Shown: positions 2,525 to 58,905, counted from the stretch's first letter. The stretch: DNA of 64,000 nt from an uncultured Gammaproteobacteria bacterium (GCA_964411255.1 CAYPKD010000001.1:71331-135330), one strand, 5' to 3'. The notes: generated by a model not told the origin, from the sequence alone. Numbers and translations: made by a program.

Positions 2525-2569
2525 AACAAAATGAAAAGCAGCCAAATGATTGACTGCTTAGGTAGGAAA
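2525..2569 (-). terminator. putative intrinsic terminator downstream of the GC-rich ORF 2651..3004
   Basis: Minus-strand hairpin AAGCAG-N12-CUGCUU followed by a U-rich tract. Confidence 0.35.
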
Positions 2570-2650
2570 ACTAATTGGCTCTGGGCTCCAAATTTTCTGG
2601 GTTTGAGTCCAGCCGTTTAGTTTTGTAAAAAGGAAGAGGTTAGGAAGGAA

Positions 2651-3004
2651 TTAGCGGGTGGCGACCACAGGCTGAACCGGCTGGTCCAGCGGGCGAGCGT
2701 TTCGATCAGAATTGGCCGCAGCCAGCAAAAGGTTGATCGAGCGCTTGGCCTCTGCCTTGGCAATCACGTCATCCATGATTGCCTTGGCCGACACTGACTT
2801 CGTGGCCACTGCCTTGGCCTGCTGCTTCGCAGGAGGCTGAGCCACAAAGTACCGCGCCCGACAGTTTTCACCATTGGCATCGCAGGCCAGAACCTGCACA
2901 GCCAGAGAAGGCTCGCCAGTCACAGGCAGCTCTTCCGCAAAGGCCGAGGCCGAAGCGAAGATAATGCCGAAAACGACGAACAGGGTGGTGGTGATGCGTG
3001 TCAT
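2651..3004 (-). CDS. GC-rich small secreted protein (signal peptide ending AFA), unknown function
   Basis: RBS AGGAGA 6 nt before the ATG. The N-terminus MTRITTTLFVVFGIIFASASAFA looks like a signal peptide. The ORF is ~60% GC in a ~30% GC genome, and the plus-strand overlapping ORF is judged an artefact of the GC richness. Confidence 0.55.
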   Translation of the reverse strand: MTRITTTLFVVFGIIFASASAFAEELPVTGEPSLAVQVLACDANGENCRARYFVAQPPAKQQAKAVATKSVSAKAIMDDVIAKAEAKRSINLLLAAANSDRNARPLDQPVQPVVATR

Positions 3005-3108
3005 GGGAATCTCCTAACCTTATGAAAAAATTGTAACTGTGCACCCCCCGAACGGGGGGATAGTATACCTATCTGAAGGTTTTCCCTCAGACAGACATGC
3101 TATTTTCC

Positions 3109-3135
3109 AAAAAAAGAACTCCCTTTTTGAGGAGT
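3109..3135 (-). terminator. attenuator-type intrinsic terminator inside the leader of cassette 1
   Basis: Minus-strand hairpin ACUCC-loop-GGAGU followed by U7. It lies between the promoter at 3223-3251 and the ORF start at 3004. Confidence 0.5.
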
Positions 3136-3215
3136 ATCTATTACAGCATTTGATACATGATTTAGGATCTATGATCCATGACTCATGTAATTCTCTCTCC
3201 CCAATTTTCATTTTA
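3136..3215 (-). promoter_or_regulatory. conserved leader RNA with coupled mini-ORFs (MSHGS then MYQML) and TCATGA repeats
   Basis: Strong RBS GGGGAGAGAGA 7 nt before AUG AGU CAU GGA UCA UAG (mini-ORF at 3169..3186, minus). The same architecture recurs at 4033-4096 with MSHRS. Confidence 0.45.
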
Positions 3216-3222
3216 ATATTAT

Positions 3223-3251
3223 ATTATATCATATTTTTTTATAAAAGTCAA
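3223..3251 (-). promoter_or_regulatory. sigma70-type promoter TTGACT-17-TATAAT (minus strand)
   Basis: Reverse complement of 3223-3251 reads TTGACT tttataaaaaaatatga TATAAT: perfect -35 and -10 elements with a 17-nt spacer. Confidence 0.6.
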
Positions 3252-3268
3252 GAGTATCATTAATTATT

Positions 3269-3284
3269 TAGCTAAATTTAGCTA
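3269..3284. promoter_or_regulatory. perfect 16-bp palindrome TAGCTAAATTTAGCTA ~20 bp upstream of the -35 (putative operator/activator site)
   Basis: Perfect dyad symmetry. It is conserved at the same relative position in cassette 2 (4151-4164). Confidence 0.45.
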
Positions 3285-3456
3285 ATTTTATCGAATTTTC
3301 ATCTTCTATACTATGCCTAAATAAATACTCGATATCACACAAATTAATTTATCAAAATATAATCTATTTATTTGTAATCACTTAATAAAAGCACTGCAAA
3401 GACTTTATTTGTAATCCAATGCTGGAAAGCCCTATGCTTTTATTACAAATAGATTT

Positions 3457-3490
3457 AAAAGGGAAAACAGCAGCTTATTAAGCTACTGCT
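3457..3490 (-). terminator. putative terminator downstream of the GC-rich ORF 3513..3941
   Basis: Minus-strand imperfect hairpin (GCAGUAGCUUA/UAAGCUGCUG) followed by UUUUCCCUUUU. Confidence 0.3.
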
Positions 3491-3512
3491 TTGAGGTAGG
3501 AAATGGGCAGAT

Positions 3513-3941
3513 TTAGCGCGAAACGATCTGCAAAAGGAGCCGTTCCTCAGGGCTCAGCAACCGCTTTTTGTGCGGTTTTGCTTCATCCTGAGCCAGCTCA
3601 GCCAGCAGTTCATCAGCGCTTTTCTTCACGGCAGGGCGCTTGTAGGCAGGCGGAAGCTCACTGGCTTTGATGCGTTTTGGAGCTACCGGACGAAGCCGAT
3701 AGCACACAAATTCGCGACCGCCACCAGGCAGATTCCGCCATTCGCAGGTTTTCTGCGGCAAGGGTTTGCAGGTCACGATAATGACACCAGAATGATGCTC
3801 ATGTTCCACACGCTCATATCCTGGATCACATTTGGGCTTTTTGGCCTGTGCAGCTCCCATGAGAAACAAAGTTCCAACGATAGCCACGAAAATCGCCACC
3901 ATACGAAGAATAATACCCATGATTGCCCTCCTCGAGGTCAA
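3513..3941 (-). CDS. GC-rich small secreted/membrane-anchored protein, unknown function
   Basis: RBS GGAGG 7 nt before the ATG. Hydrophobic N-terminus ...AIFVAIVGTLFLMGAAQA, then a basic Cys-containing region. ~58% GC. Confidence 0.55.
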   Translation of the reverse strand: MTSRRAIMGIILRMVAIFVAIVGTLFLMGAAQAKKPKCDPGYERVEHEHHSGVIIVTCKPLPQKTCEWRNLPGGGREFVCYRLRPVAPKRIKASELPPAYKRPAVKKSADELLAELAQDEAKPHKKRLLSPEERLLLQIVSR

Positions 3942-4004
3942 ATAGTTGTTAAAAATACCATACCTGTTTAAGGCTCAAATAAGCGCTAAACAGGGATAAT
4001 ATTT

Positions 4005-4032
4005 ATAAAAAGAACTCCTTTTTTTAGGAGTT
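4005..4032 (-). terminator. attenuator-type intrinsic terminator inside the leader of cassette 2
   Basis: Minus-strand hairpin AACUCCU-A7-AGGAGUU followed by CUUUUUAUAAAU. The stop codon of the second leader mini-ORF (MNLGSWIRNS) lies inside the 5' stem. Confidence 0.5.
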
Positions 4033-4096
4033 TCTGATCCATGATCCAAGATTCATGATCTATGACTCATGACCAAACTCTCTCTCCTATATTTTA
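4033..4096 (-). promoter_or_regulatory. conserved leader RNA with coupled mini-ORFs (MSHRS then MNLGSWIRNS, joined by an AUGA stop/start overlap)
   Basis: RBS AGGAGAGAGAG 7 nt before the AUG (mini-ORF at 4053..4070, minus). TCATGA palindromes are repeated across the leader. Confidence 0.45.
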
Positions 4097-4103
4097 ATAT
4101 TTC

Positions 4104-4132
4104 ATTATAGCATAAATTTTACAAAAAGTCAA
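4104..4132 (-). promoter_or_regulatory. sigma70-type promoter TTGACT-17-TATAAT (minus strand)
   Basis: Reverse complement reads TTGACT ttttgtaaaatttatgc TATAAT: perfect hexamers with a 17-nt spacer. Confidence 0.6.
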
Positions 4133-4150
4133 TCGTATTATATAATATTT

Positions 4151-4164
4151 GGCTAAATTTAGCT
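4151..4164. promoter_or_regulatory. palindrome GCTAAATTTAGC upstream of the -35 (copy 2 of the putative operator)
   Basis: Same dyad as 3269-3284, at the same spacing from the -35 element. Confidence 0.4.
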
Positions 4165-4188
4165 GAATACATATTTTCACACAAATAA

Positions 4189-4215
4189 AAAACCCTGAAT
4201 AAATTCAGAGTTTTT
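4189..4215 (-). terminator. intrinsic terminator after CDS 4232..5080
   Basis: Minus-strand hairpin CUGAAUUUAUUCAG, then GG + U6. Confidence 0.5.
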
Positions 4216-4231
4216 TATTATTTTATGTAAT

Positions 4232-5080
4232 TTAAGCTTCTAATTCTATTAATTTTTGTCTAATTGCTATTAACCGCTTTCTATACTCAGTATCTTCTCT
4301 TTCAAAAAAATCTGACAATCTTTCCTGTGATTTTTCACTTATTTTTCGAATAGGGCTTGGTTCTTCCTCAGTAATATCAGCTTCTTCAACTTCAATATCT
4401 GATTCAGGTCCCTCAGCTATTTTTTTTACCACAGTTAATTTCTTACCCTTTAATTCAGCTAATAGTTTTCGTATTGTATTTTCAGCCTCATCTTCTGATA
4501 AAGCCATTATCTCATCTTCATCAAAATTAATAAGATCTGATTCAGTAAATGATAAATCTTCTTTAATTTTAGTAGCAATCACTTCAGTTTCACTTTCATA
4601 TTGAGCATTTGCCTTTTTTAGTGTTTGAAGTATTTCAAATGAACTGGGCTCTTTGCCATATTCTCTATCATGCTTTTTAATAAGTTTATCAACTTCCTGC
4701 ACCAGCTTTCTGGCCTTTGTTTTGCCAGCTTTTTCATATATTTCATTTATCTGAGCCAATAATTCCTGCTCTTGTTTTTCTAAAATATCTGCTGCTTCCT
4801 TTTCTTCTGGTCTTTTTTGCTCTTGTTGCCCTTGTTGTTCAAGTCTTTCTAATTCTTCAGCAGTCATTGCCTCAGCTTCTCCTGGAGCAGTTTCTTCTTC
4901 AGCTCCAACAGAAACTTCTGGTGCTTCATAAGGCCATTTTTCCGGAACACCAGACCTTGTTCGAACCTCAGTTGGCTCGCTAAATTGTTCTGGATTATCT
5001 GACTTTTTTTTAGATTTATCATCTTTTGAGGAACTTTTATCCTTTTTTCCTCCTAATACTTTAGTAAATTTTTCAAACAT
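4232..5080 (-). CDS. acidic Lys/Glu-rich low-complexity protein, unknown function
   Basis: 282-aa ORF with coherent K/E-rich coiled-coil-like composition. No obvious RBS was found. Confidence 0.45.
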   Translation of the reverse strand: MFEKFTKVLGGKKDKSSSKDDKSKKKSDNPEQFSEPTEVRTRSGVPEKWPYEAPEVSVGAEEETAPGEAEAMTAEELERLEQQGQQEQKRPEEKEAADILEKQEQELLAQINEIYEKAGKTKARKLVQEVDKLIKKHDREYGKEPSSFEILQTLKKANAQYESETEVIATKIKEDLSFTESDLINFDEDEIMALSEDEAENTIRKLLAELKGKKLTVVKKIAEGPESDIEVEEADITEEEPSPIRKISEKSQERLSDFFEREDTEYRKRLIAIRQKLIELEA

Positions 5081-6669: not shown

Positions 6670-6782
6670 ACATTAAATTTTATTTTTGAAGCCTTTTACT
6701 GTATTCATCTTTTATCATTTTTTAAAAAATTTGTAAAGCATTAAAAATTACATATCGTTTTTTTCAAAACTAAGTTCATATC

Positions 6783-6980
6783 CAGCATCAGGGGTCTGGG
6801 GGGCTGATTGCCCCCAGCGTAATAATAAAACTTGATAGTCGCTTCGCATTTGAAGCCCCCCAGCACTTTTTGGTTACTTTTTGGTGCCAAAAAGTAACTT
6901 GGCGCAAGCCCAGAACCGTATGGTTCTGGGCTTGCCAACATTGCAAAGGGCAAAGCAGGCTTTGGCCTGCATTGTTAAAA
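6783..6980. repeat. GC-rich structured repeat element, family X copy 1 (possible ncRNA or palindromic mobile element)
   Basis: Shares ~150 nt with 36756-36930. It contains several perfect hairpins (GGGGGCUGAUUGCCCCC; GUUACUUUUUGG-UG-CCAAAAAGUAAC; GCAAGCCCAGAACC-GUAU-GGUUCUGGGCUUGC). The long hairpin differs between copies by compensatory pairs. Confidence 0.5.
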
Positions 6981-7954: not shown

Positions 7955-9949
7955 TCACTGCCAAGAGGCAATATTCAGTCCTCCCATAAAATCAGGAGAA
8001 TATACAAACTTCTCAGTTATTACATTACCTAAGATGTCAAAAATTCGCAAATGCGGTTTGTTGTCTTCGCCAGGTACCACCGCAATATCTAAATTATTAT
8101 TCTTTAATAAATCAGTTGCCATTACTTTCACATTACCAGTAAAATTTTCTGAATATGCTAAAAAGCTTACGTTTGCCTGGCCTTTTTGATCAAATATTTT
8201 CACAATTGGTTTTCCAGCTATCGGTCCAGTAATGATTTCTGCAAAACCATCATGATTAATATCAGCTACATCAATATTTACTCCTTTAAAATCTCCACTG
8301 CTATAAGCTACAAATGAACTGATTAATTCACCTTTTTGGTTAAAAATCTTAACTTCATTATTTGATAAACTGGATACTATAATCTCATCTATTCCATTAT
8401 TATCTATGTCACCGCTTGAAATATTACAGCCGTTATTATCATTAAATGGAATAAATGAATTTATTTTTATTATTCTTTCATTAAAAAATAAAACCTCTGT
8501 TTGTCTGCCAGGGCCAGTGCAAACTAATAATTCCTGCGTTCCGTCTTCTTTGATAATCGAACCAAGATCAGATCCGCCTGTATATGCAGTGTTGAAAATA
8601 TAATTACTGGCCAATATTTTTTGATCTAATGATAATATTCTAAGCATTACAGGTGATCCTTCTGCTGGCACAACAGCATATTCAAGATTGCCGTCATTAT
8701 TAATATCTAAAACTTCAACAACCAATCCATCTGCAAATTCATTTTCAAACACAAAGATTTCATCATCTGGCTCAAGTTCCTGATTTAAAATTCTAAAACT
8801 TGCTATGCCATCGCCGGCCTGGCTGACAAGAATCTTTTGGGCAAACCTTGAAGCACTTTTACCATGCTTTAAAATAATATTTTTTAATGATTCATAAATA
8901 TTTAATCTTCCAGGACCCATATCACCTACTTCCATCCAAGGATCAAGCTCGATAGGATCTGCACCCAAAGCCAATGTCTCAATTATCTCTTCTACAGTTA
9001 AACTTCTATTAATTGATCGCATTAATGCAATAGATCCGCTTACAATAGCAGAAGAAAAAGACGTACCTTGCGTATCGTTTCCATAATATTCTTCCTCTGA
9101 TTCAGCCAACTGATGAATCTTCGTACTGAACATGTCTTCTCCTGGCGCTGCGATATCAATACAGCCTTCTCCATAATTACTAAAAACTGATGGATAATCA
9201 TCCACGTCTGTTGAAGCTACACCAATTACCAAAACTTCTGCTCCATCCTTATCATAGCAAACAGGATACATTCTCAAATCATCCAAATCAAATCCTTCAC
9301 CAAACCAGCCATTGCCAGCAGCAGCCACAATAATTACATTTGCCTCTTTGGCTTTATTTATTGCCTGTACTGCAGCAGTAGTGTCATCATAACCAGCTAA
9401 GCTTAAATTAATAACATCTGCGCCATTATCGATTGCATATTCAATTGCTTTAGCCACAGTATCAGAATCTCCATCACCCATTTCATCCAGTACTTTTAGC
9501 GGCATGATTTTTACCTTATTGGCAATACCCACGACACCAATATTATTTTCCATCGCAGCGATTATTCCAGAAACAAAAGTACCATGATGAATAATGTCAT
9601 CAAAATACCAATCTAAATCTGGGACTGGGTCAGGCCAGTCATAAATAAAATCCCAGCCATTAATATCATCTATATAACCATTATTATCATTATCAATTCC
9701 ATCTCCTGCAAATTCATCCATATTAACCCAAATATTTCCAGATAAATCCGGATGCGTAATATCAACGCCAGTATCTAATACAGCCACAATCACCTCTTCA
9801 CTACCTTTTGTGTAATCCCAGGCTTCAAATGCATTAATTTTTTCCAAATACCATTGTTTTTCAACGTATGGATCTGCGGTTTGAAGCAACCCTGTAATTG
9901 GCATTGAAAAAAATACAAGGATAACTAAAGTAAATAAAAATTTTTTCAT
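7955..9949 (-). CDS. secreted subtilisin-like serine protease (S8) with C-terminal FG-GAP/VCBS-like repeats
   Basis: Signal peptide MKKFLFTLVILVFF. Asp/His/Ser motifs VAVLDTGVD, HGTFVSGIIAA and GTSFSSAIVSGSIAL. The start was trimmed to Met35 of the track ORF. Confidence 0.85.
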   Translation of the reverse strand: MKKFLFTLVILVFFSMPITGLLQTADPYVEKQWYLEKINAFEAWDYTKGSEEVIVAVLDTGVDITHPDLSGNIWVNMDEFAGDGIDNDNNGYIDDINGWDFIYDWPDPVPDLDWYFDDIIHHGTFVSGIIAAMENNIGVVGIANKVKIMPLKVLDEMGDGDSDTVAKAIEYAIDNGADVINLSLAGYDDTTAAVQAINKAKEANVIIVAAAGNGWFGEGFDLDDLRMYPVCYDKDGAEVLVIGVASTDVDDYPSVFSNYGEGCIDIAAPGEDMFSTKIHQLAESEEEYYGNDTQGTSFSSAIVSGSIALMRSINRSLTVEEIIETLALGADPIELDPWMEVGDMGPGRLNIYESLKNIILKHGKSASRFAQKILVSQAGDGIASFRILNQELEPDDEIFVFENEFADGLVVEVLDINNDGNLEYAVVPAEGSPVMLRILSLDQKILASNYIFNTAYTGGSDLGSIIKEDGTQELLVCTGPGRQTEVLFFNERIIKINSFIPFNDNNGCNISSGDIDNNGIDEIIVSSLSNNEVKIFNQKGELISSFVAYSSGDFKGVNIDVADINHDGFAEIITGPIAGKPIVKIFDQKGQANVSFLAYSENFTGNVKVMATDLLKNNNLDIAVVPGEDNKPHLRIFDILGNVITEKFVYSPDFMGGLNIASWQ

Positions 9950-14132: not shown

Positions 14133-14345
14133 ATAAAAAAACCAAGACAAATAATGCTTGGGGCCCTTCCGGGTGGTTCCACCCAATTTCCAGCCGAAGC
14201 CAATATGTGGAGGGGTAGCTCTGCTGCCCCGACTTTGGCTGAGGCTGACTCTCATTCACTACTTCCAGCTTAGTTAGGTTTATACACCTAATTCCTCTGT
14301 GGAAGATTAGTTGGTAGCCAATCCAATCACCTTTAGTAGTGACTT
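14133..14345 (-). promoter_or_regulatory. structured GC-rich leader with a T-box-like motif and terminator upstream of dtd-thrS (candidate Thr T-box riboswitch); contains repeat family Y copy A at 14187-14248
   Basis: The minus-strand RNA contains AAAUUGGGUGGAACCACCCGG (compare the T-box consensus AAUUAGGGUGGNACCGCG). A hairpin CCAAG..CUUGG + U7 follows, ending 6 nt before the dtd ATG. Confidence 0.35.
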
Positions 14346-31637: not shown

Positions 31638-31686
31638 GCCTTCTTTCCCCCTTAAGCCACCTTAAGCCTTCTCAAGCCCTCTTAAA
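31638..31686. repeat. GC-richer repeat family Z (cttaagcc/ctcaagccctct motif), copy 1
   Basis: gccttctttcccccttaagccaccttaagccttctcaagccctctt. Related copies lie at 39296-39364 (inverted) and 39811-39872. Confidence 0.45.
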
Positions 31687-31757
31687 TAATATTTTACCAT
31701 AATTTCATAAATCATGGAACATGGAACACATAGCATATAACAAAAAAGCACAGAACT

Positions 31758-36675: not shown

Positions 36676-36755
36676 ATTTTGTAAAATTCACTGCTATTTT
36701 AGCATTTTTTTGGTAAAAAATAAAATTTACCATAAACAAAACACCATTCATCTAT

Positions 36756-36930
36756 AGCATCGGGGGTCTGGGGGGCTGATTGCCCCCGGCGCGAAAAATA
36801 AACTTAATCACTGCTTCGCATTTGAAGCCCCCCAGTGCTTTTTGCCTACTTTTTGGCAGCAAAAAGTAGGTCGGCGCAAGCCGAAATTGGTGAGAATAAA
36901 ATCAGGCCCTCAGGCCTGTATTGTAAAAAA
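36756..36930. repeat. GC-rich structured repeat element, family X copy 2
   Basis: Aligns with 6783-6980. The hairpin CCUACUUUUUGG-CA-GCAAAAAGUAGG carries compensatory substitutions relative to copy 1. Confidence 0.5.
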
Positions 36931-39290: not shown

Positions 39291-39295
39291 ATTTT

Positions 39296-39364
39296 TTAGA
39301 AGGCTTAAGAGGGCTTGAGGGGGCTTGATAAGGCTATGGGGTAGAGAGGTAAGGAAGGCTTCTC
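39296..39364. repeat. repeat family Z, inverted copy flanking the four-helix-bundle gene (left arm)
   Basis: gaaggcttaagagggcttgagggggcttgataaggc... is the reverse complement of the ctcaagccctct-type motif at 39811-39872. Confidence 0.45.
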
Positions 39365-39810: not shown

Positions 39811-39872
39811 GCCCTCTCTTCCTATTTACATCTCAACCTCTCAAGCCTTCTTCTGCCCTCTCAAGCCCTCTA
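39811..39872. repeat. repeat family Z, right arm flanking the four-helix-bundle gene
   Basis: gccctctcttcc...ctctcaagccttcttctgccctctcaagccctcta. Confidence 0.45.
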
Positions 39873-42728: not shown

Positions 42729-43349
42729 TTAGTCCTCCCAGTAAGCGAAGGAATCCATCCAGTCTGGATAGTTTTCGTCCAGCCAGACCCGTGCCTGTTT
42801 GATCAGCTGTCGCGTTATCCTGTACCGCTGGAGTCTGTCACCCTCGAGCTCGGCCACTTCTGTGACGTGCAAGGTCTTGCCGCAGTCGGTCACTACTCCG
42901 CCGTCTGTGACATAGGCCAGATACTCTGCTTCTGATTCCAGCTGGCTGGTATCGTGGCACGACTCGTGGATACCGAACCGTGGGGCCAGGATCAGAGAGG
43001 CTACCCGTTGATAGTGGTTGGGCTTGTAGAAGATCCGAGCCCTTTCTCTGTCCTGATCGTCTATCAGCATGCTCAGCCAGGGATGGCCTGAAGCCACCCT
43101 TTTCCAGCCTGCTGGCAAACGCACCAGCTGAAACAACTCGTCATCTGCTGGACCGAGGAATTCCACTCCGGCCTTTTCCAAAACTTCCTTTGCACCTTCT
43201 GGCTCGACTTCGGCTGGCAGCATCTCTGATGCTGATGTCAAGAAATCCTGCTGTCCTTTCCTTTCTTCGTCGGCCACTACCTGATGTGGTCCGTGTTTTA
43301 CTGATTCTGCTAGGAAATCGAGTGCTTGTTGTTTGGATAACATTTTCAA
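42729..43349 (-). CDS. GC-rich hypothetical protein (206 aa), compositionally foreign
   Basis: RBS GGAGG 8 nt before the ATG. ~52% GC. Immediately downstream of the tRNA-Leu 3' end and of a TTGACT-17-TATGAT promoter. Confidence 0.6.
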   Translation of the reverse strand: MKMLSKQQALDFLAESVKHGPHQVVADEERKGQQDFLTSASEMLPAEVEPEGAKEVLEKAGVEFLGPADDELFQLVRLPAGWKRVASGHPWLSMLIDDQDRERARIFYKPNHYQRVASLILAPRFGIHESCHDTSQLESEAEYLAYVTDGGVVTDCGKTLHVTEVAELEGDRLQRYRITRQLIKQARVWLDENYPDWMDSFAYWED

Positions 43350-43522: not shown

Positions 43523-43609
43523 TGGTGCGCGGAGAGGGAGTTGAACCCTCACGCCCAAATGGACACTGGCCCCTCAAGCCAGCCTGTCTACCAATTCCAG
43601 CACCCGCGC
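43523..43609 (-). tRNA. tRNA-Leu (anticodon GAG)
   Basis: Minus strand reads GCGCGGGTGCTGGAATTGGTAGACAGGCTGGCTTGAGGGGCCAGTGTCCATTTGGGCGTGAGGGTTCAACTCCCTCTCCGCGCACCA. 7-bp acceptor stem, anticodon loop UUGAGGG, long variable arm, GTTCAAC T-loop and encoded CCA. Confidence 0.9.
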
Positions 43610-54043: not shown

Positions 54044-57000
54044 TTACTGTTCGCTCCAGGGCAAATTAACATCCTTTGCCTTTTCATGGTGCTCAAAGTC
54101 ATCACCAGAAATATCTTCTTTTATCTCTTGAGCGGTCTCTTCTCCATGCCATTCATGCGGTAAATTTCGCACAGGTCTTCTTTTAACTTCTGGCTCTACT
54201 TTTTTATCAAGTTTTGGCTCTAGAGCTTTTGGCGTTCCATGTTTTTCCATTAAAATATTTTGAGTTAATGCTTCGCCTTTTTCCTTATTCTGTTCAATTA
54301 AATCACTCCTAAAATTTTCGTAACCATTCTTTTCACATGTAATATAATAAACATTTTTCCCTACTAAAAAGCTATAACGACCATGTGGATCTGTAACTTG
54401 GGTTTCTAATAACCGATTATATTTATTGTCATATAATCGAACAACAGTTCTGCCAAGAGGCTTTTTATTTGTTTTGTCAGCCACAATACCCCAGCCTTTG
54501 GGCTTCTTTGGCACAGCCAACCTCTTAAATAATGAGTACAATAATAAATGAATAACTAATAATGCAAAGAATAAAGCGCTTGGTTTTATTAAAAATACTA
54601 TAAAAGTAGCAATTGGCCCTAATATGGCCATAACCTTTTGAATTTTTCGCAACAAGTAAACCGTTAAAATTTTTGAACTTGGCTTTGGCTTTTTATCAGC
54701 ATCTAAAGGTATATTTGGTGTTATTACAGATTTCTCATCAACTTGAATACTTTCTCCATGGTATATATCAATGTAAAATAAATCTTCTTTTTGATCAGCT
54801 AAAATCTGAGTTGGGAAAACATACCCTTTTTTAAATACTTTAATATAATAACTGCCAGGCTTCACTACAAAAGAAAATCTGCCTTCTTTATCCGTTACCT
54901 TTGTTTGAATCAACTTATTATTAACTACGTTATATAATCTCAATATTGCCAAATCCACCGGCTGCTTTGTTATTGAATCGTATACTACCCCGTATTTCTT
55001 TCTTTTCTTTTTAAAAATAACAAGCAAAGGTTCAGAAAAAAGGAAAAATAAATATGGTAAAAGTCCTGCTAACGAAGCAATTGATAAAATATTAAACGCA
55101 GTCACTGCAGCAATTGCCGGTGTTCCGAACTTGTCTGTTGCTTCTTCAACGTCAGGATTATTAAATATATTTTCAATTATAAATGATTCATTAATACTCT
55201 TTATAAAATCTGATTCAACAATCCTGTTTCTTAAATCTTTTAAAGCCTCAACAATTTCTGCTGCTGCGACAATTTCAATTTCCTCAGTCTGTTCATTATT
55301 ATCCAATTCATTTTCACAATCTGGATCTGCCAAATCGACTAAACCATCGCCGTCGTTATCCAATCCATCTGAACATTGCGGTAGGATCAATTCATCAGTC
55401 TCATCATCATCTTCAGTACTTCTGCAGCCAGGATCTGATGGATAATCAACCAAACCGTCATTGTCATTATCAATATCATCTGAACATTGATAGATAACTA
55501 TTTCATCTATCTCATCATCATCTTCCAAACTTTCACAACCAGGATCTGTAGGCCAGTCTGTTAACCCGTCATTATCATTATCAATGCCATCAGAGCATTG
55601 AGTGATTAATTCTTCTTCAACTTCATTATTATCTTCTGGGCTATCGCAACCAGGATCTGCCGGATAATCTATAAAACCGTCATCATCATTGTCTACACCA
55701 TCTGAACACTGGGTCACAGGCGCTTCATCTTCTTCACTATTATCCTGCTCACTAGAACAGCCAGGATCTGCCGGATAATCTACTAAACCATCATTATCAT
55801 TATCAGTATCATCTGAGCATTGTGGCACGAACTCAACATTAAACTCATTATTGTCTTCAGGGTATGAGCAGCCCGGATCTGCGGGAAAATCGATTAAGCC
55901 ATCGTTATCATTATCAATATTATCTGAACAAGCTGGCAAAACTTCGTCTATTTCATTATCATCTTGGTCACTATCACATCCAGGATCTGCAGGGTAATCA
56001 ATTAGGCTGTCATTATCATTATCTATACCATCTGAACATTGCGGTAAAATCACCACATCAGCCTCGTCATTATCCTGATCGCTATCACAACCAGGGTCTG
56101 CTGGATAATCAACCAAACTGTCATCGTCATTATCAATGCCATCTGAACACTGAGGTAAAGCACTTGAAGTGGTAAAAATAAACAAATCAGTAAAATCAGT
56201 TTCTTCACCATCACCATTTCTGGCCTTTACCCTAAACGAATAATCAGTTGATGGAGACAATCCTATATTGGTCCAGCCAGTATCTGTAATCCAGTCAGAA
56301 TTTTGGCCAGTATCAATATTTTCAAACCAAAGAGTTGTCAAACCATCTCCTAAGTTTGGTAAACTTCCATTTGCCTCAATGGTAATAAAATCACTTCCAG
56401 CATCAACTAAAACCAATTCATCTGGTTTATTTATTAAAGTATATTTCGAAGCACTTTCTGACCAATCAGACTGATCAGTATTATTTTGTGCCATTACCTG
56501 AAAAGTATACTCAGTATTTTCAGATAAACCTGCAATATTTTTCCCAAGCAAACTGCCCCAGCTATTATATGATTGCCATTCTTCAGTCATATCCAGAGTG
56601 CCATCAGACTGCAAATAAAGTCCGGTTGTTGTTTCATTTATCAAATATAAAACATCATCCTCATTACCATTAGGATCTAAAACAATATTTAATATTGACG
56701 GTGATATGGCCAGCAAAGTTGGCGCGCCAGGAACATACAGCACAGCATCTGACAATGTAGCAAAAGTTTGATCAGCTGATTCAGCAGGATTAAAATTACT
56801 GTCGCGCACCCAAATTTTAAAATGATATTCAGTGTCAGGAATTAAATTAGCCAAATCTACACTGTGTGATGTTAAAAAATTATTATTATCAACCTGAGAT
56901 CCATAACTATCTGTTTCACCATAATAAAGTATAGACGTTGCCAATTCATCTGTTTCCCAAGTAATGGTAACTGAAGTGGTAGTAATATTAATTACCTGAA

Positions 57001-57160
57001 TATTTGAAATTATTGGCGGAGTCTGATCACCTGGCGGCTGACCAGGAGCAACAATAGAGATTGAGACATTGGCATCCTCTGTAGCTGCAAAACCAAAAGC
57101 AGACCATAATAAAAATATGGTTAGAGTACAAATAAAAATCCATCTATTTTTTCTTCGCAT
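54044..57160 (-). CDS. large (1038 aa) secreted/TM protein with fibronectin-III-like N-domains, ~9 tandem Ca-binding DNDxDG repeats and two carboxypeptidase-regulatory-like (transthyretin-fold) domains
   Basis: Repeats QCSDGIDNDNDGL(I/V)DYPADPGC. RLYNVVNNKLIQTKVTDKEGRFSF and RLYDNKYNRLLETQVTDPHGRYSF are CarboxypepD_reg-like. Confidence 0.75.
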   Translation of the reverse strand: MRRKNRWIFICTLTIFLLWSAFGFAATEDANVSISIVAPGQPPGDQTPPIISNIQVINITTTSVTITWETDELATSILYYGETDSYGSQVDNNNFLTSHSVDLANLIPDTEYHFKIWVRDSNFNPAESADQTFATLSDAVLYVPGAPTLLAISPSILNIVLDPNGNEDDVLYLINETTTGLYLQSDGTLDMTEEWQSYNSWGSLLGKNIAGLSENTEYTFQVMAQNNTDQSDWSESASKYTLINKPDELVLVDAGSDFITIEANGSLPNLGDGLTTLWFENIDTGQNSDWITDTGWTNIGLSPSTDYSFRVKARNGDGEETDFTDLFIFTTSSALPQCSDGIDNDDDSLVDYPADPGCDSDQDNDEADVVILPQCSDGIDNDNDSLIDYPADPGCDSDQDDNEIDEVLPACSDNIDNDNDGLIDFPADPGCSYPEDNNEFNVEFVPQCSDDTDNDNDGLVDYPADPGCSSEQDNSEEDEAPVTQCSDGVDNDDDGFIDYPADPGCDSPEDNNEVEEELITQCSDGIDNDNDGLTDWPTDPGCESLEDDDEIDEIVIYQCSDDIDNDNDGLVDYPSDPGCRSTEDDDETDELILPQCSDGLDNDGDGLVDLADPDCENELDNNEQTEEIEIVAAAEIVEALKDLRNRIVESDFIKSINESFIIENIFNNPDVEEATDKFGTPAIAAVTAFNILSIASLAGLLPYLFFLFSEPLLVIFKKKRKKYGVVYDSITKQPVDLAILRLYNVVNNKLIQTKVTDKEGRFSFVVKPGSYYIKVFKKGYVFPTQILADQKEDLFYIDIYHGESIQVDEKSVITPNIPLDADKKPKPSSKILTVYLLRKIQKVMAILGPIATFIVFLIKPSALFFALLVIHLLLYSLFKRLAVPKKPKGWGIVADKTNKKPLGRTVVRLYDNKYNRLLETQVTDPHGRYSFLVGKNVYYITCEKNGYENFRSDLIEQNKEKGEALTQNILMEKHGTPKALEPKLDKKVEPEVKRRPVRNLPHEWHGEETAQEIKEDISGDDFEHHEKAKDVNLPWSEQ
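55300..56160 (-). repeat. coding tandem repeat (~114-bp units, 8-9 copies) encoding CSDxxDNDxDGLxDYPxDPGC modules
   Basis: Visible periodicity in both the DNA and the translation. Confidence 0.7.
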
Positions 57161-58842: not shown

Positions 58843-58905
58843 TATCCAGCAGAAGCCATAACGTGGAGAGGTAACTTCTGCTGCCCCGACTTTGGCTGAG
58901 GCTGA
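58843..58905. repeat. GC-rich repeat family Y copy B (immediately 3' of argS)
   Basis: tatccagcagaagccataacgtggagaggtaacttctgctgccccgactttggctgaggctga is ~85% identical to 14187-14248. Confidence 0.55.

Follow-up and report, generated by a model that had tools for sequence, protein, structure and literature searches.

Ribosome-mediated transcription attenuation by way of a leader peptide has been described for bmrB-bmrCD of Bacillus subtilis (PMC4191407). The target of HutP consists of three XAG motifs with 4-nucleotide (nt) spacers on both sides of a terminator (PMC2425495), and the Hfq protein of B. subtilis selects AG repeats (PMC3287200). Here we analyse two tandem gene units at positions 2,525 to 4,215 of a 64,000-nt stretch of DNA from an uncultured Gammaproteobacteria bacterium (GCA_964411255.1, CAYPKD010000001.1:71331-135330; the whole stretch is referred to as the window). 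Each unit probably has its own strong sigma-70 promoter and a leader of ~95-110 nt that, judging from predicted folds, acts as a transcription attenuator ahead of a GC-rich gene. We interpret the control element as a hitherto undescribed variant of the terminator/antiterminator leader, unusual in having a Shine-Dalgarno (SD)-like antiterminator strand and an array of heptamers. The evidence base is three lineages and four leader copies, all of it sequence.

The window is a stretch of bacterial chromosome and has 34.5% GC, with DnaE, PPDK, rfbABD, and very large ORFans. The two units, read directly from the sequence, occupy the minus strand at 4167-3461 (unit A) and 3285-2526 (unit B), between a 282-residue ORFan (4232-5080) and rfbD (1596-2459). 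They have in common a 5' control region of ~250 nt and a 3' terminator motif, TTCCTACCT..AAGCAG-loop-CTGCTTTT (also written UUCCUACCU..AAGCAG-loop-CUGCUUUU). The motif is absent from an earlier, sequence-only reading of this DNA, which had described two adjacent minus-strand units with a common control region. The units are present as described: when the two control regions were aligned, mean column identity was 77% from the upstream repeat to just past a hairpin downstream of the terminator (hairpin 2). A leader profile searched with nhmmer found exactly two copies in the window at E ~1e-40, so the likeness of the A and B leaders is not due to chance. Each unit runs in the order upstream 10-nt repeat/palindrome, promoter, leader, CAUG/GAUC-rich stretch, terminator, hairpin 2, SD, open reading frame (ORF), and 3' motif (Table 1).

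A consensus scan recovered the TTGACT-17-TATAAT promoter claimed earlier in both units, with an 11/12 match and a TG extension. The upstream palindrome had been called perfect; this is true of unit B (3269-3284), but unit A has two mismatches. Tandem Repeats Finder (TRF) reads the palindrome as 2.2-2.5 copies of a 10-nt repeat, and within the window the 16-nt palindrome occurs at the two units only. The intrinsic terminator said to lie ahead of the main ORF is likewise predicted in both units, as hairpins at 4032-4013 and 3135-3118 that are each followed by a U-run, giving the order promoter, leader, terminator, ORF. The same scan found no promoter-like site between terminator and ORF in either unit. 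Given that both ORFs are under selection (see below), their expression must pass the terminator.

A second lineage with the same locus (contigs L001-L003, L048, and L049) was found in five samples, identical among samples and with ~85% DNA identity to the window; the window lineage itself was recovered in further samples. Samples carrying this organism are JGI 3300018080, 3300017991, and 3300017971, SRR14699969, and ERZ272567xx. The leader dataset consists of four distinct sequences, namely window A, window B, L001 A, and L001 B. As the neutral yardstick we took neighbouring genes, whose third codon positions are 66-74% identical (synonymous divergence, dS, 0.56-1.0). Between the window and L001, identity is 93-97% in the promoter, 94-96% from the transcription start site (TSS) to a purine tract, 86-97% in the terminator, and 85-98% in hairpin 2. 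It falls to 66-79% in the intervening mini-ORF or 'palindrome' stretch, one of the leader's least conserved parts, diverging at about the neutral level. Both ends of the leader are its best-conserved parts. The purine tract GGAGAGAGA is invariant, and the leader starts AAUAUUAAAAU…GGAGAGAGA in both units.

In the predicted folds, the purine tract, (U)AGGAG or UUGGGGAG, pairs with the 5' arm of the terminator, CUCCUA or CUCCUCAA, in 4/4 copies. This helix, termed P1, encloses a central hairpin built from 7-nt repeats, and it is present in all four leaders when an unconstrained fold omits the 3' arm of the terminator. P1 and the terminator are predicted to be mutually exclusive. Constrained folds gave P1/terminator energies of -21.7/-23.3, -23.8/-21.0, -22.8/-24.6, and -26.7/-26.4 kcal/mol, so that the gap is at most ~3 kcal/mol in every copy. 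P1 cells are 96.9% paired, compared with 53-69% in slid registers, and comparison of the A with the B type shows two pairs in which both partners differ (U-A to G-C and U-A to A-U). Downstream of the terminator, the stems of hairpin 2 differ between A and B at the equivalent place and are followed by the shared AGGUAU..UAU. Read from the alignment of the window with L001, hairpin 2 of unit B has undergone one G-C to A-U double change and three changes from wobble to Watson-Crick pairs. In these models, promoter, terminator, P1, and hairpin 2 together have the anatomy of a transcription attenuator in which the antiterminator forms first. Folding the leaders thus yields the terminator/antiterminator alternatives that had been proposed for this locus, as predicted exclusive folds in all four copies, whereas the stalling peptide that was to operate the switch is not conserved.

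According to the sequence-only reading, a conserved five-codon mini-ORF (MSHRS in unit A, MSHGS in unit B) encodes an arrest peptide that stalls the ribosome and so controls read-through. Leader-peptide attenuation is established, for example in bmrB-bmrCD (PMC4191407), and one or other peptide does stand behind an SD in window A, window B, and L001 B. Like leader-ORF attenuators (bmrB-bmrCD; erm/msrD-type), the locus has an SD with a short upstream ORF (uORF), a terminator, and alternative hairpins with or without the terminator's 5' arm. Several features set it apart from those systems: its peptide lacks conservation, it has no runs of regulatory codons, the predicted antiterminator strand is its SD, and its uORF region is a period-7 array. 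The genes differ as well: leader-ORF attenuators serve resistance or biosynthetic genes, whereas here the genes are for small secreted proteins known from sequence alone.

The peptide is lost in L001 A. There, the ATGAGTCAT start is gone, the usual AUG having become CUG, and a 7-nt deletion has taken out one repeat; an in-frame upstream UUG has become AUG, which opens a different 15-codon uORF, MVLEPESWILYLVLL, with its stop in the terminator loop. Window B and L001 B are nucleotide-identical across the mini-ORF, so they provide no independent support for MSHxS. The five-codon ORF ends >30 nt ahead of the terminator, and a repeat period of 7, not being a multiple of 3, means that the stretch is no codon repeat. 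Given this period, the loss in L001 A, and the near-neutral divergence of the stretch, a conserved arrest peptide MSHxS is not supported, and we regard stalling by it as very improbable. In the sequences searched beyond the window, the leader occurs only in the L001 lineage, whose unit A lacks MSHRS. The overlap on which the proposed translational coupling to a second mini-ORF depends is present in unit A, where MNLGSWIRNS* (4056-4024) overlaps MSHRS by AUGA and stops in the terminator loop, but there is no such overlap in unit B, whose second uORF has five codons in the window and two in L001.

What is conserved between lineages at the leader start is not the peptide but an AUG right after the purine tract, 2-7 nt past GGAGAGAGA in 4/4 copies. 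Since every copy has an AUG after the tract, itself a perfect SD, ribosome loading is the likeliest input, and we tentatively favour an attenuator leader that responds to loading of the ribosome or its 30S subunit. Such an input also fits the start codon lost in L001 A and regained upstream. When the purine tract is free, P1 would form first and RNA polymerase would read through to hairpin 2 and the ORF (ON). When the tract is occupied, CUCCU would be released and the terminator would form (OFF). The occupant would be a 30S subunit or ribosome loading on the short uORF, the peptide sequence being irrelevant, and the switch would sense translation capacity rather than a specific arrest peptide. 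The anatomy of the leader and its conservation are observed directly; from them we infer termination at the terminator, the competition by P1, and the trigger of the switch.

The organism seems to use SD sequences rarely: only 5 of the 31 long, ATG-started native genes of the window have an SD motif (GGAG/GAGG/AGGA type) within 22 nt upstream. An invariant GGAGAGAGA is therefore unlikely to reflect background composition. The same rarity, however, lowers the prior for the purine tract being a ribosome-binding site, and several other points also weigh against ribosome loading as the input. The uORFs vary in length (5 codons; 5 + 10 coupled; 15 reaching the terminator loop) and geometry, ending >30 nt upstream of the terminator, 8 nt upstream of it, or inside its loop, depending on the copy, and no single model of ribosome position fits all four. 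In the P1 test, the native leaders are equalled by 40 of 500 shuffles, and with only four distinct leaders (two paralogues in two lineages), the covariation support is weak. A ribosome sensor does not explain the significant 7-nt periodicity of the leaders, which points to an RNA-binding oligomer. Finally, the terminator may simply leak, or the leader ending there may itself be a small RNA.

The periodicity resides in the stretch that had been described as TCATGA palindromes and that is actually a tandem array of 7-nt units, (A/G)UC(A/C)UG(R). Each of the four leader copies shows autocorrelation at lag 7 (0.44-0.57, p <= 0.0024), and TRF reports period 7 in the mini-ORF stretch. In unit A the array is in register with the 5' arm of the terminator, ACUCCUA being the last in-register unit, and it folds as the central hairpin. 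The corresponding array of L001 has one unit fewer and has C for A in every unit relative to the window; within L001, units are of the CCUG type in unit A and of the CAUG type in unit B. The UC-N-UG core is kept across lineages despite 21-34% divergence. Methylation at Dam or CATG sites was considered as a reason for the richness in GATC and CATG and rejected, as both tetramers occur at their expected genome frequency.

An oligomeric RNA-binding protein of the HutP/TRAP type could read such heptamers through their UC-N-UG core and decide between terminator and antiterminator. HutP (hut) and TRAP (trp) of Bacillus also act on regularly spaced short motifs adjoining or overlapping a terminator, and HutP sites have the same 7-nt period (PMC2425495). 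The lag-7 signal in all four leaders, the register of the array into the terminator arm, the difference in copy number of exactly one unit, and the retained core all fit this explanation. The core, however, is not NAG, GAG, or UAG; the array is one contiguous run of 5-6 units and not, as for HutP, two sites of three; and genes resembling those for HutP or TRAP were not found in the vicinity, neither of the neighbours p140 and p282 in the 64-kb window matching a family in Pfam, NCBIfam, or PDB. The array also evolves at about the neutral rate, slippage can create and homogenise repeats without any function, and the two units of L001 differ in carrying CCUG or CAUG. We consider a HutP/TRAP-type protein unlikely, though it is the chief competitor of ribosome loading.

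Under a third explanation, the 95-110-nt transcript would be a small RNA and a product in its own right, with an anatomy of the Hfq type and no switch, and the ORFs would depend on leaky read-through at a constitutive level. From promoter to terminator the leader forms a complete unit, best conserved at its two ends, and it combines a 5' AGAGAGAG (AG)n tract with a terminal hairpin and U-run; AG repeats are what B. subtilis Hfq selects (PMC3287200). In the terminator-state fold, the purine tract can also pair with the U-run. Yet the conserved sequence does not stop at the terminator but extends into hairpin 2 (98% in unit A), linking leader to mRNA, and a plain small RNA would not need nearly isoenergetic P1 and terminator folds in 4/4 copies. 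No target is known, and six-frame translation of the 64-kb window revealed no YKHAI-type Sm2 motif of Hfq, which is weak evidence. On balance a small RNA without a switch appears distinctly unlikely.

The leader also has a likeness to riboswitch platforms, in that a 5' strand closes a helix with the 5' arm of the terminator and the two states are of similar energy. Unlike a riboswitch, it has no conserved aptamer, P1 enclosing the least conserved segment of the leader, and it matches no Rfam family. Resemblance to ANTAR, PyrR, and T-box elements was rejected as well: we found no matching hexaloops or conserved boxes and no Rfam match. Rfam gave no family at the gathering threshold and only chance-level matches at E <= 10, in a gathering run that also missed a tRNA-Leu. 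This tRNA-Leu was located by ARAGORN at 43523-43609, and the Rfam gathering run over the whole window reported no match, not even a tRNA.

To judge from the sequences searched, the leader occurs only in this lineage. The pattern GGAGAGAGA-N45-75-GGAGTTCTTTTT matched 12 times in 185,579 species genomes, all by chance on inspection, and 31 times in 241 million metagenome records, where the one real match was the known L001 contig; in IMG/VR viral contigs there was a single chance match. An nhmmer search with the leader profile over all sequences gathered returned known copies only. The second-lineage contigs that reach past unit B all break a few hundred nt downstream, at …CTGAGCGAGCGAG (L001 3700-3775; ends of L002 and L003). 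At the place matching these breaks, L050, a contig of a third lineage (see below), carries GCAAGACAAGCAAGA-type repeats arranged as a long imperfect palindrome (480-590). Neither the …CTGAGCGAGCGAG break nor the GCAAGACAAGCAAGA palindrome is found in the window lineage, whose unit B runs straight into rfbD.

The sequence-only reading gave the two ORFs lengths of 117 and 142 residues. The former is correct for ORF B; ORF A has 135 residues from its ATG, the start also called by metagenome pipelines (ATG 3920), and 142 only from an upstream TTG. Both ORFs are real genes under purifying selection. Differences between the lineages at first, second, and third codon positions number 17/9/52 in ORF A and 8/3/22 in ORF B, placing 52/78 and 22/33 of them at third positions. 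The ratio of nonsynonymous to synonymous divergence (dN/dS) is 0.108 for ORF A and 0.149 for ORF B, compared with 0.015 for rfbB and 0.064 and 0.336 for neighbouring ORFans. ORF A has no indels between lineages, and those in ORF B are of 3 and 6 nt. It is the third-position bias, the indels in multiples of three, and the low dN/dS that identify both as genes; in an antisense ORF over ORF A, the variable sites fall on first codon positions, so that this frame is not coding.

Each ORF has the strong SD and the signal-peptide-like N-terminus claimed for it, the latter by inspection only. The signal peptides have n-h-c organisation and an AxA motif: MGIILRMVAIFVAIVGTLFLMGAAQA|KK (…MGAAQA|KK) in ORF A and MTRITTTLFVVFGIIFASASAFA|EE (…SASAFA|EE) in ORF B. 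AlphaFold2 models are poor (pLDDT 62.6 and 55.6); they show an N-terminal helix in both proteins, together with a small Cys-containing beta region and a C-terminal helix. Both proteins are probably secreted by a Sec-type route. Sequence searches of Pfam, NCBIfam, and PDB with ORF A, ORF B, p282, and p140 gave no match.

The only more distant homologue comes from a third AT-rich lineage. This protein, P0005, is encoded on an 827-nt contig (L050, from ERZ27256773), is 43% identical to ORF B, and has the same length and Cys spacing; by inspection, its signal peptide ends …LEAEASA|NE. P0005 is followed by the shared terminator motif (UUCCUUCCUA-AGCAGCC…GGCUGC) and next by rfbD, an arrangement that matches the window; the encoded N-terminus of RfbD is 69% identical to the window protein. 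When 1.84 billion representative proteins were searched exhaustively with ORF B (HMMER), only its own lineage and P0005 were returned. In all, ORF B has two close clusters and the 43% homologue, and ORF A has two close clusters only. A word-indexed index of 5.8 billion clusters held no homologue of either ORF outside the AT-rich lineages, and searches of plasmids, phages, PDB, and viral contigs gave no match.

The two ORFs had been described as unrelated. No significant similarity was found between them (BLASTP E = 1.1; hhalign probability 0.2%; permutation p = 0.39), but the C-terminal helix of ORF A gives a weak hint of similarity to that of P0005 (permutation p = 0.007, a hint only). The units probably arose by an old tandem duplication, after which the proteins diverged fast and the regulatory RNA stayed constrained. 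This weak match and the shared 5' and 3' flanks favour duplication, and the capture of two unrelated genes is less likely. Between the units, the window has a spacer of ~120 nt (3335-3455) that is missing in the L001 lineage and unique in the window. With its 11-nt inverted repeat, it could represent either a decayed element or a small insertion.

Both ORFs had been put at ~60% GC. This is right for ORF B (60%) and too high for ORF A (52%), the window as a whole having 34.5%. GC content at third codon positions (GC3) is 0.51 in ORF A and 0.69 in ORF B, against 0.16-0.31 in 17 other genes of the window, and GC at first and second positions (GC1 and GC2) is also raised. Such segments could in principle be structured non-coding RNA or non-coding insertions with chance ORFs, for high GC gives long chance ORFs, several ORFs overlap on both strands here, and folds of mRNA plus 3' untranslated region (3'UTR) beat shuffles (z = -4.3 and -6.0). 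The third-position bias, the 3- and 6-nt indels, and dN/dS of 0.11-0.15 contradict this, as does the protein-level homologue P0005 with its conserved length and Cys spacing. In the orthologues the fold z-scores are weak (-0.6 to -2.5), inside the span of the native controls (0 to -3.6), and there is no Rfam family. GC-rich non-coding insertions are ruled out by the codon-position pattern, and we find a non-coding nature of these segments scarcely credible. Selection for mRNA structure as the cause of the high GC found no clear support (z of -2.2 to -4.5 in the window and -0.6 to -2.5 in the orthologues, with controls reaching -3.6).

Recent acquisition from a high-GC host or partner, with the donor composition as yet unameliorated, is another explanation; acquisition from such a source had been raised as a possibility by the sequence-only reading. 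The deviation of GC3, GC1, and GC2 from the other window genes agrees with it, as does the strong SD of these ORFs in a genome mostly without SD. As in horizontally acquired islands, there is a sharp jump in GC and GC3 that is limited to the ORFs, and the translation signals are different. Unlike in such islands, the regulatory DNA around both ORFs is native-like. No integrase, tRNA, or mobility gene was found at the locus. The search for a donor matched only the same AT-rich lineages, leaving acquisition from a high-GC partner without a donor homologue and recent transfer unsupported. Moreover, the anomaly is kept in the relative with 69% RfbD identity: P0005, syntenic upstream of rfbD, has a GC3 of 0.85 beside 0.16 in the adjacent rfbD fragment. 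Third-position differences between strong and weak bases (S/W) in the window and L001 run in both directions (9:8 in ORF B, 24:15 in ORF A). We consider recent transfer improbable.

These sequences suggest instead that the GC-richness (GC3 0.5-0.85 against ~0.2 for the genome) is an old, maintained property and not the mark of a fresh transfer. This follows from the GC3 of P0005 at a syntenic locus where, to infer from the 69% RfbD identity, the synonymous sites of the neighbour are probably saturated. The cause may be an ancient transfer together with a force holding GC high, or selection on the nucleic acid itself. Possible reasons for the latter are survival of the mRNA amid AU-rich decay, deliberate use of rare codons, and a match to a high-GC host. 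The two halves of the locus can be combined in one speculation, that an unknown oligomeric RNA-binding protein reads the heptamers and that nucleic-acid selection keeps the two secreted-protein genes at GC3 0.5-0.85; we think this combination a long shot.

The window contains a third GC-rich ORF, at 42729-43343 on the minus strand (204 residues; GC 0.54, GC3 0.60), adjoining tRNA-Leu(GAG) at 43523-43609. An AT-rich promoter of its own and a strong SD, AAGGAGG, precede it, and it lacks the shared leader. All three GC-rich ORFs have a strong SD, unlike most window genes. Plasmids of Clostridium and Rhizobium and phages of Mycobacterium and Gordonia carry weak homologues of the third ORF (28-33% identity). 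For horizontal transfer it is a more conventional candidate. Its plasmid and actinophage homologues imply that foreign high-GC DNA does enter this genome, a point that recent transfer of ORFs A and B can claim in its favour.

Table 1. Features of units A and B, listed in the direction of transcription (coordinates in the window; percentages are identities between the two lineages).
Feature	Start	End	Strand	Remarks
Unit A upstream 10-nt repeat/imperfect palindrome	4148	4167	-	cAGCTAAATTTAGCcA; centre ~-61 from predicted TSS; candidate operator
Unit A sigma-70-type promoter	4104	4132	-	TTGACT-17-TATAAT + TG extension; 97% identical to L001
Unit A leader 5' end	4079	4101	-	invariant AAUAUUAAAAU, then purine tract UAGGAGAGAGA; SD-like; predicted 5' strand of P1; 96%
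Unit A heptamer array	4036	4076	-	six units (G/A)UCAUG(R); lag-7 0.57, p<0.0002; TRF period 7
Unit A mini-ORF	4053	4070	-	AUG AGU CAU AGA UCA UGA (MSHRS*); not conserved in L001
Unit A predicted intrinsic terminator	4003	4032	-	AACUCCU-A6-AGGAGUU, then CUUUUUAUAA; scan and folds
Unit A hairpin 2	3953	4004	-	predicted irregular ~19-bp duplex, 3' strand ending in shared AGGUAUGGUAU; starts just past U-run; 98%
SD and ORF A	3513	3933	-	SD GAGGAGGG (3933-3926); ATG 3920 to stop 3513; 135 residues, 4 Cys; GC 0.52, GC3 0.51
Unit A 3' motif	3461	3503	-	UUUCCUACCU, then terminator AGCAGUAGCUU-AAU-AAGCUGCUG-UUUU; motif recurs in unit B and L050
Inter-unit spacer, ~120 nt	3335	3455	-	GATTACAAATAAA x2; inverted repeat TAATAAAAGCA / TGCTTTTATTA
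Unit B upstream perfect palindrome	3268	3285	-	TTAGCTAAATTTAGCTAA; also 10-nt direct repeat; sequence, TRF
Unit B promoter	3223	3251	-	TTGACT-17-TATAAT + TG extension; 93%
Unit B leader 5' end	3192	3220	-	AAUAUUAAAAU, then UUGGGGAGAGAGA; SD-like; predicted 5' strand of P1
Unit B heptamer array	3138	3189	-	~6 recognisable units; inner hairpin GGAUC-AUA-GAUCC; lag-7 0.47, p=0.0008
Unit B mini-ORF	3169	3186	-	AUG AGU CAU GGA UCA UAG (MSHGS*); sequence
Unit B predicted intrinsic terminator	3109	3135	-	ACUCCUC-A5-GGGAGU, then UCUUUUUUU; 97%
Unit B hairpins 2 and 3	3044	3105	-	predicted; hairpin 2 (3105-3060), 14-bp core + extension; hairpin 3 (3059-3044), CCCCCC-GUUC-GGGGGG
SD and ORF B	2651	3015	-	SD AGGAG (3015-3011); ATG 3004 to stop 2651; 117 residues, 2 Cys; GC 0.60, GC3 0.69
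Unit B conserved 3'UTR	2526	2650	-	terminator UUCCUACCUAAGCAG-loop-CUGCUUUU (stem 2559-2536); 89%

Several other repeats were noted in the window. A GC-rich intergenic element of ~170 nt is present at 6765-6935 and 36735-36885 (minus strand; ~80-87% identity), with a third copy in L051 (7538-7747). It has a compensatory hairpin (GTTACTTTTTGG..CCAAAAAGTAAC versus CCTACTTTTTGC..GCAAAAAGTAGG), invariant blocks CTGGGGGGCTTCAAATGCGAAGC and GGGGGCAATCAGCCCCCCAGACCCC, and no Rfam family, and may be a structured RNA or a repeat element. A gene for a 1038-residue fn3/CarboxypepD_reg surface protein (54044-57160) contains, at 55279-56155, six to eight tandem repeats of 111 nt (37 codons), and a related 40-nt segment is found in a subtilase gene (9665-9704). 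Intergenic repeats with a 10-nt period, of the CTTAAGCC / CTCAAGCC type, occur in both orientations at 31638-31692, 39295-39335, and 39837-39871. An identical 29-nt GC-rich sequence, TCTGCTGCCCCGACTTTGGCTGAGGCTGA, is present at 14220-14248 and 58877-58905; in both cases a minus-strand ORF has its 5' end there or close by.

Regulatory RNA in uncultivated AT-rich bacteria with reduced genomes, possibly of the candidate-phyla type, is almost unexplored; a full-text literature search for attenuation, riboswitches, or leaders in Patescibacteria or the Candidate Phyla Radiation found no papers. If the leader described here is a true switch, it would be a compact attenuator without an Rfam family, in which an SD-like tract doubles as the antiterminator strand. 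The composition of the ORF B family, with GC3 of 0.69-0.85 beside 0.16-0.22 in the neighbour and no donor detected, contradicts the usual expectation that foreign DNA ameliorates. The family is a small, clean case in which to ask what holds the composition of a gene against genomic mutation pressure.

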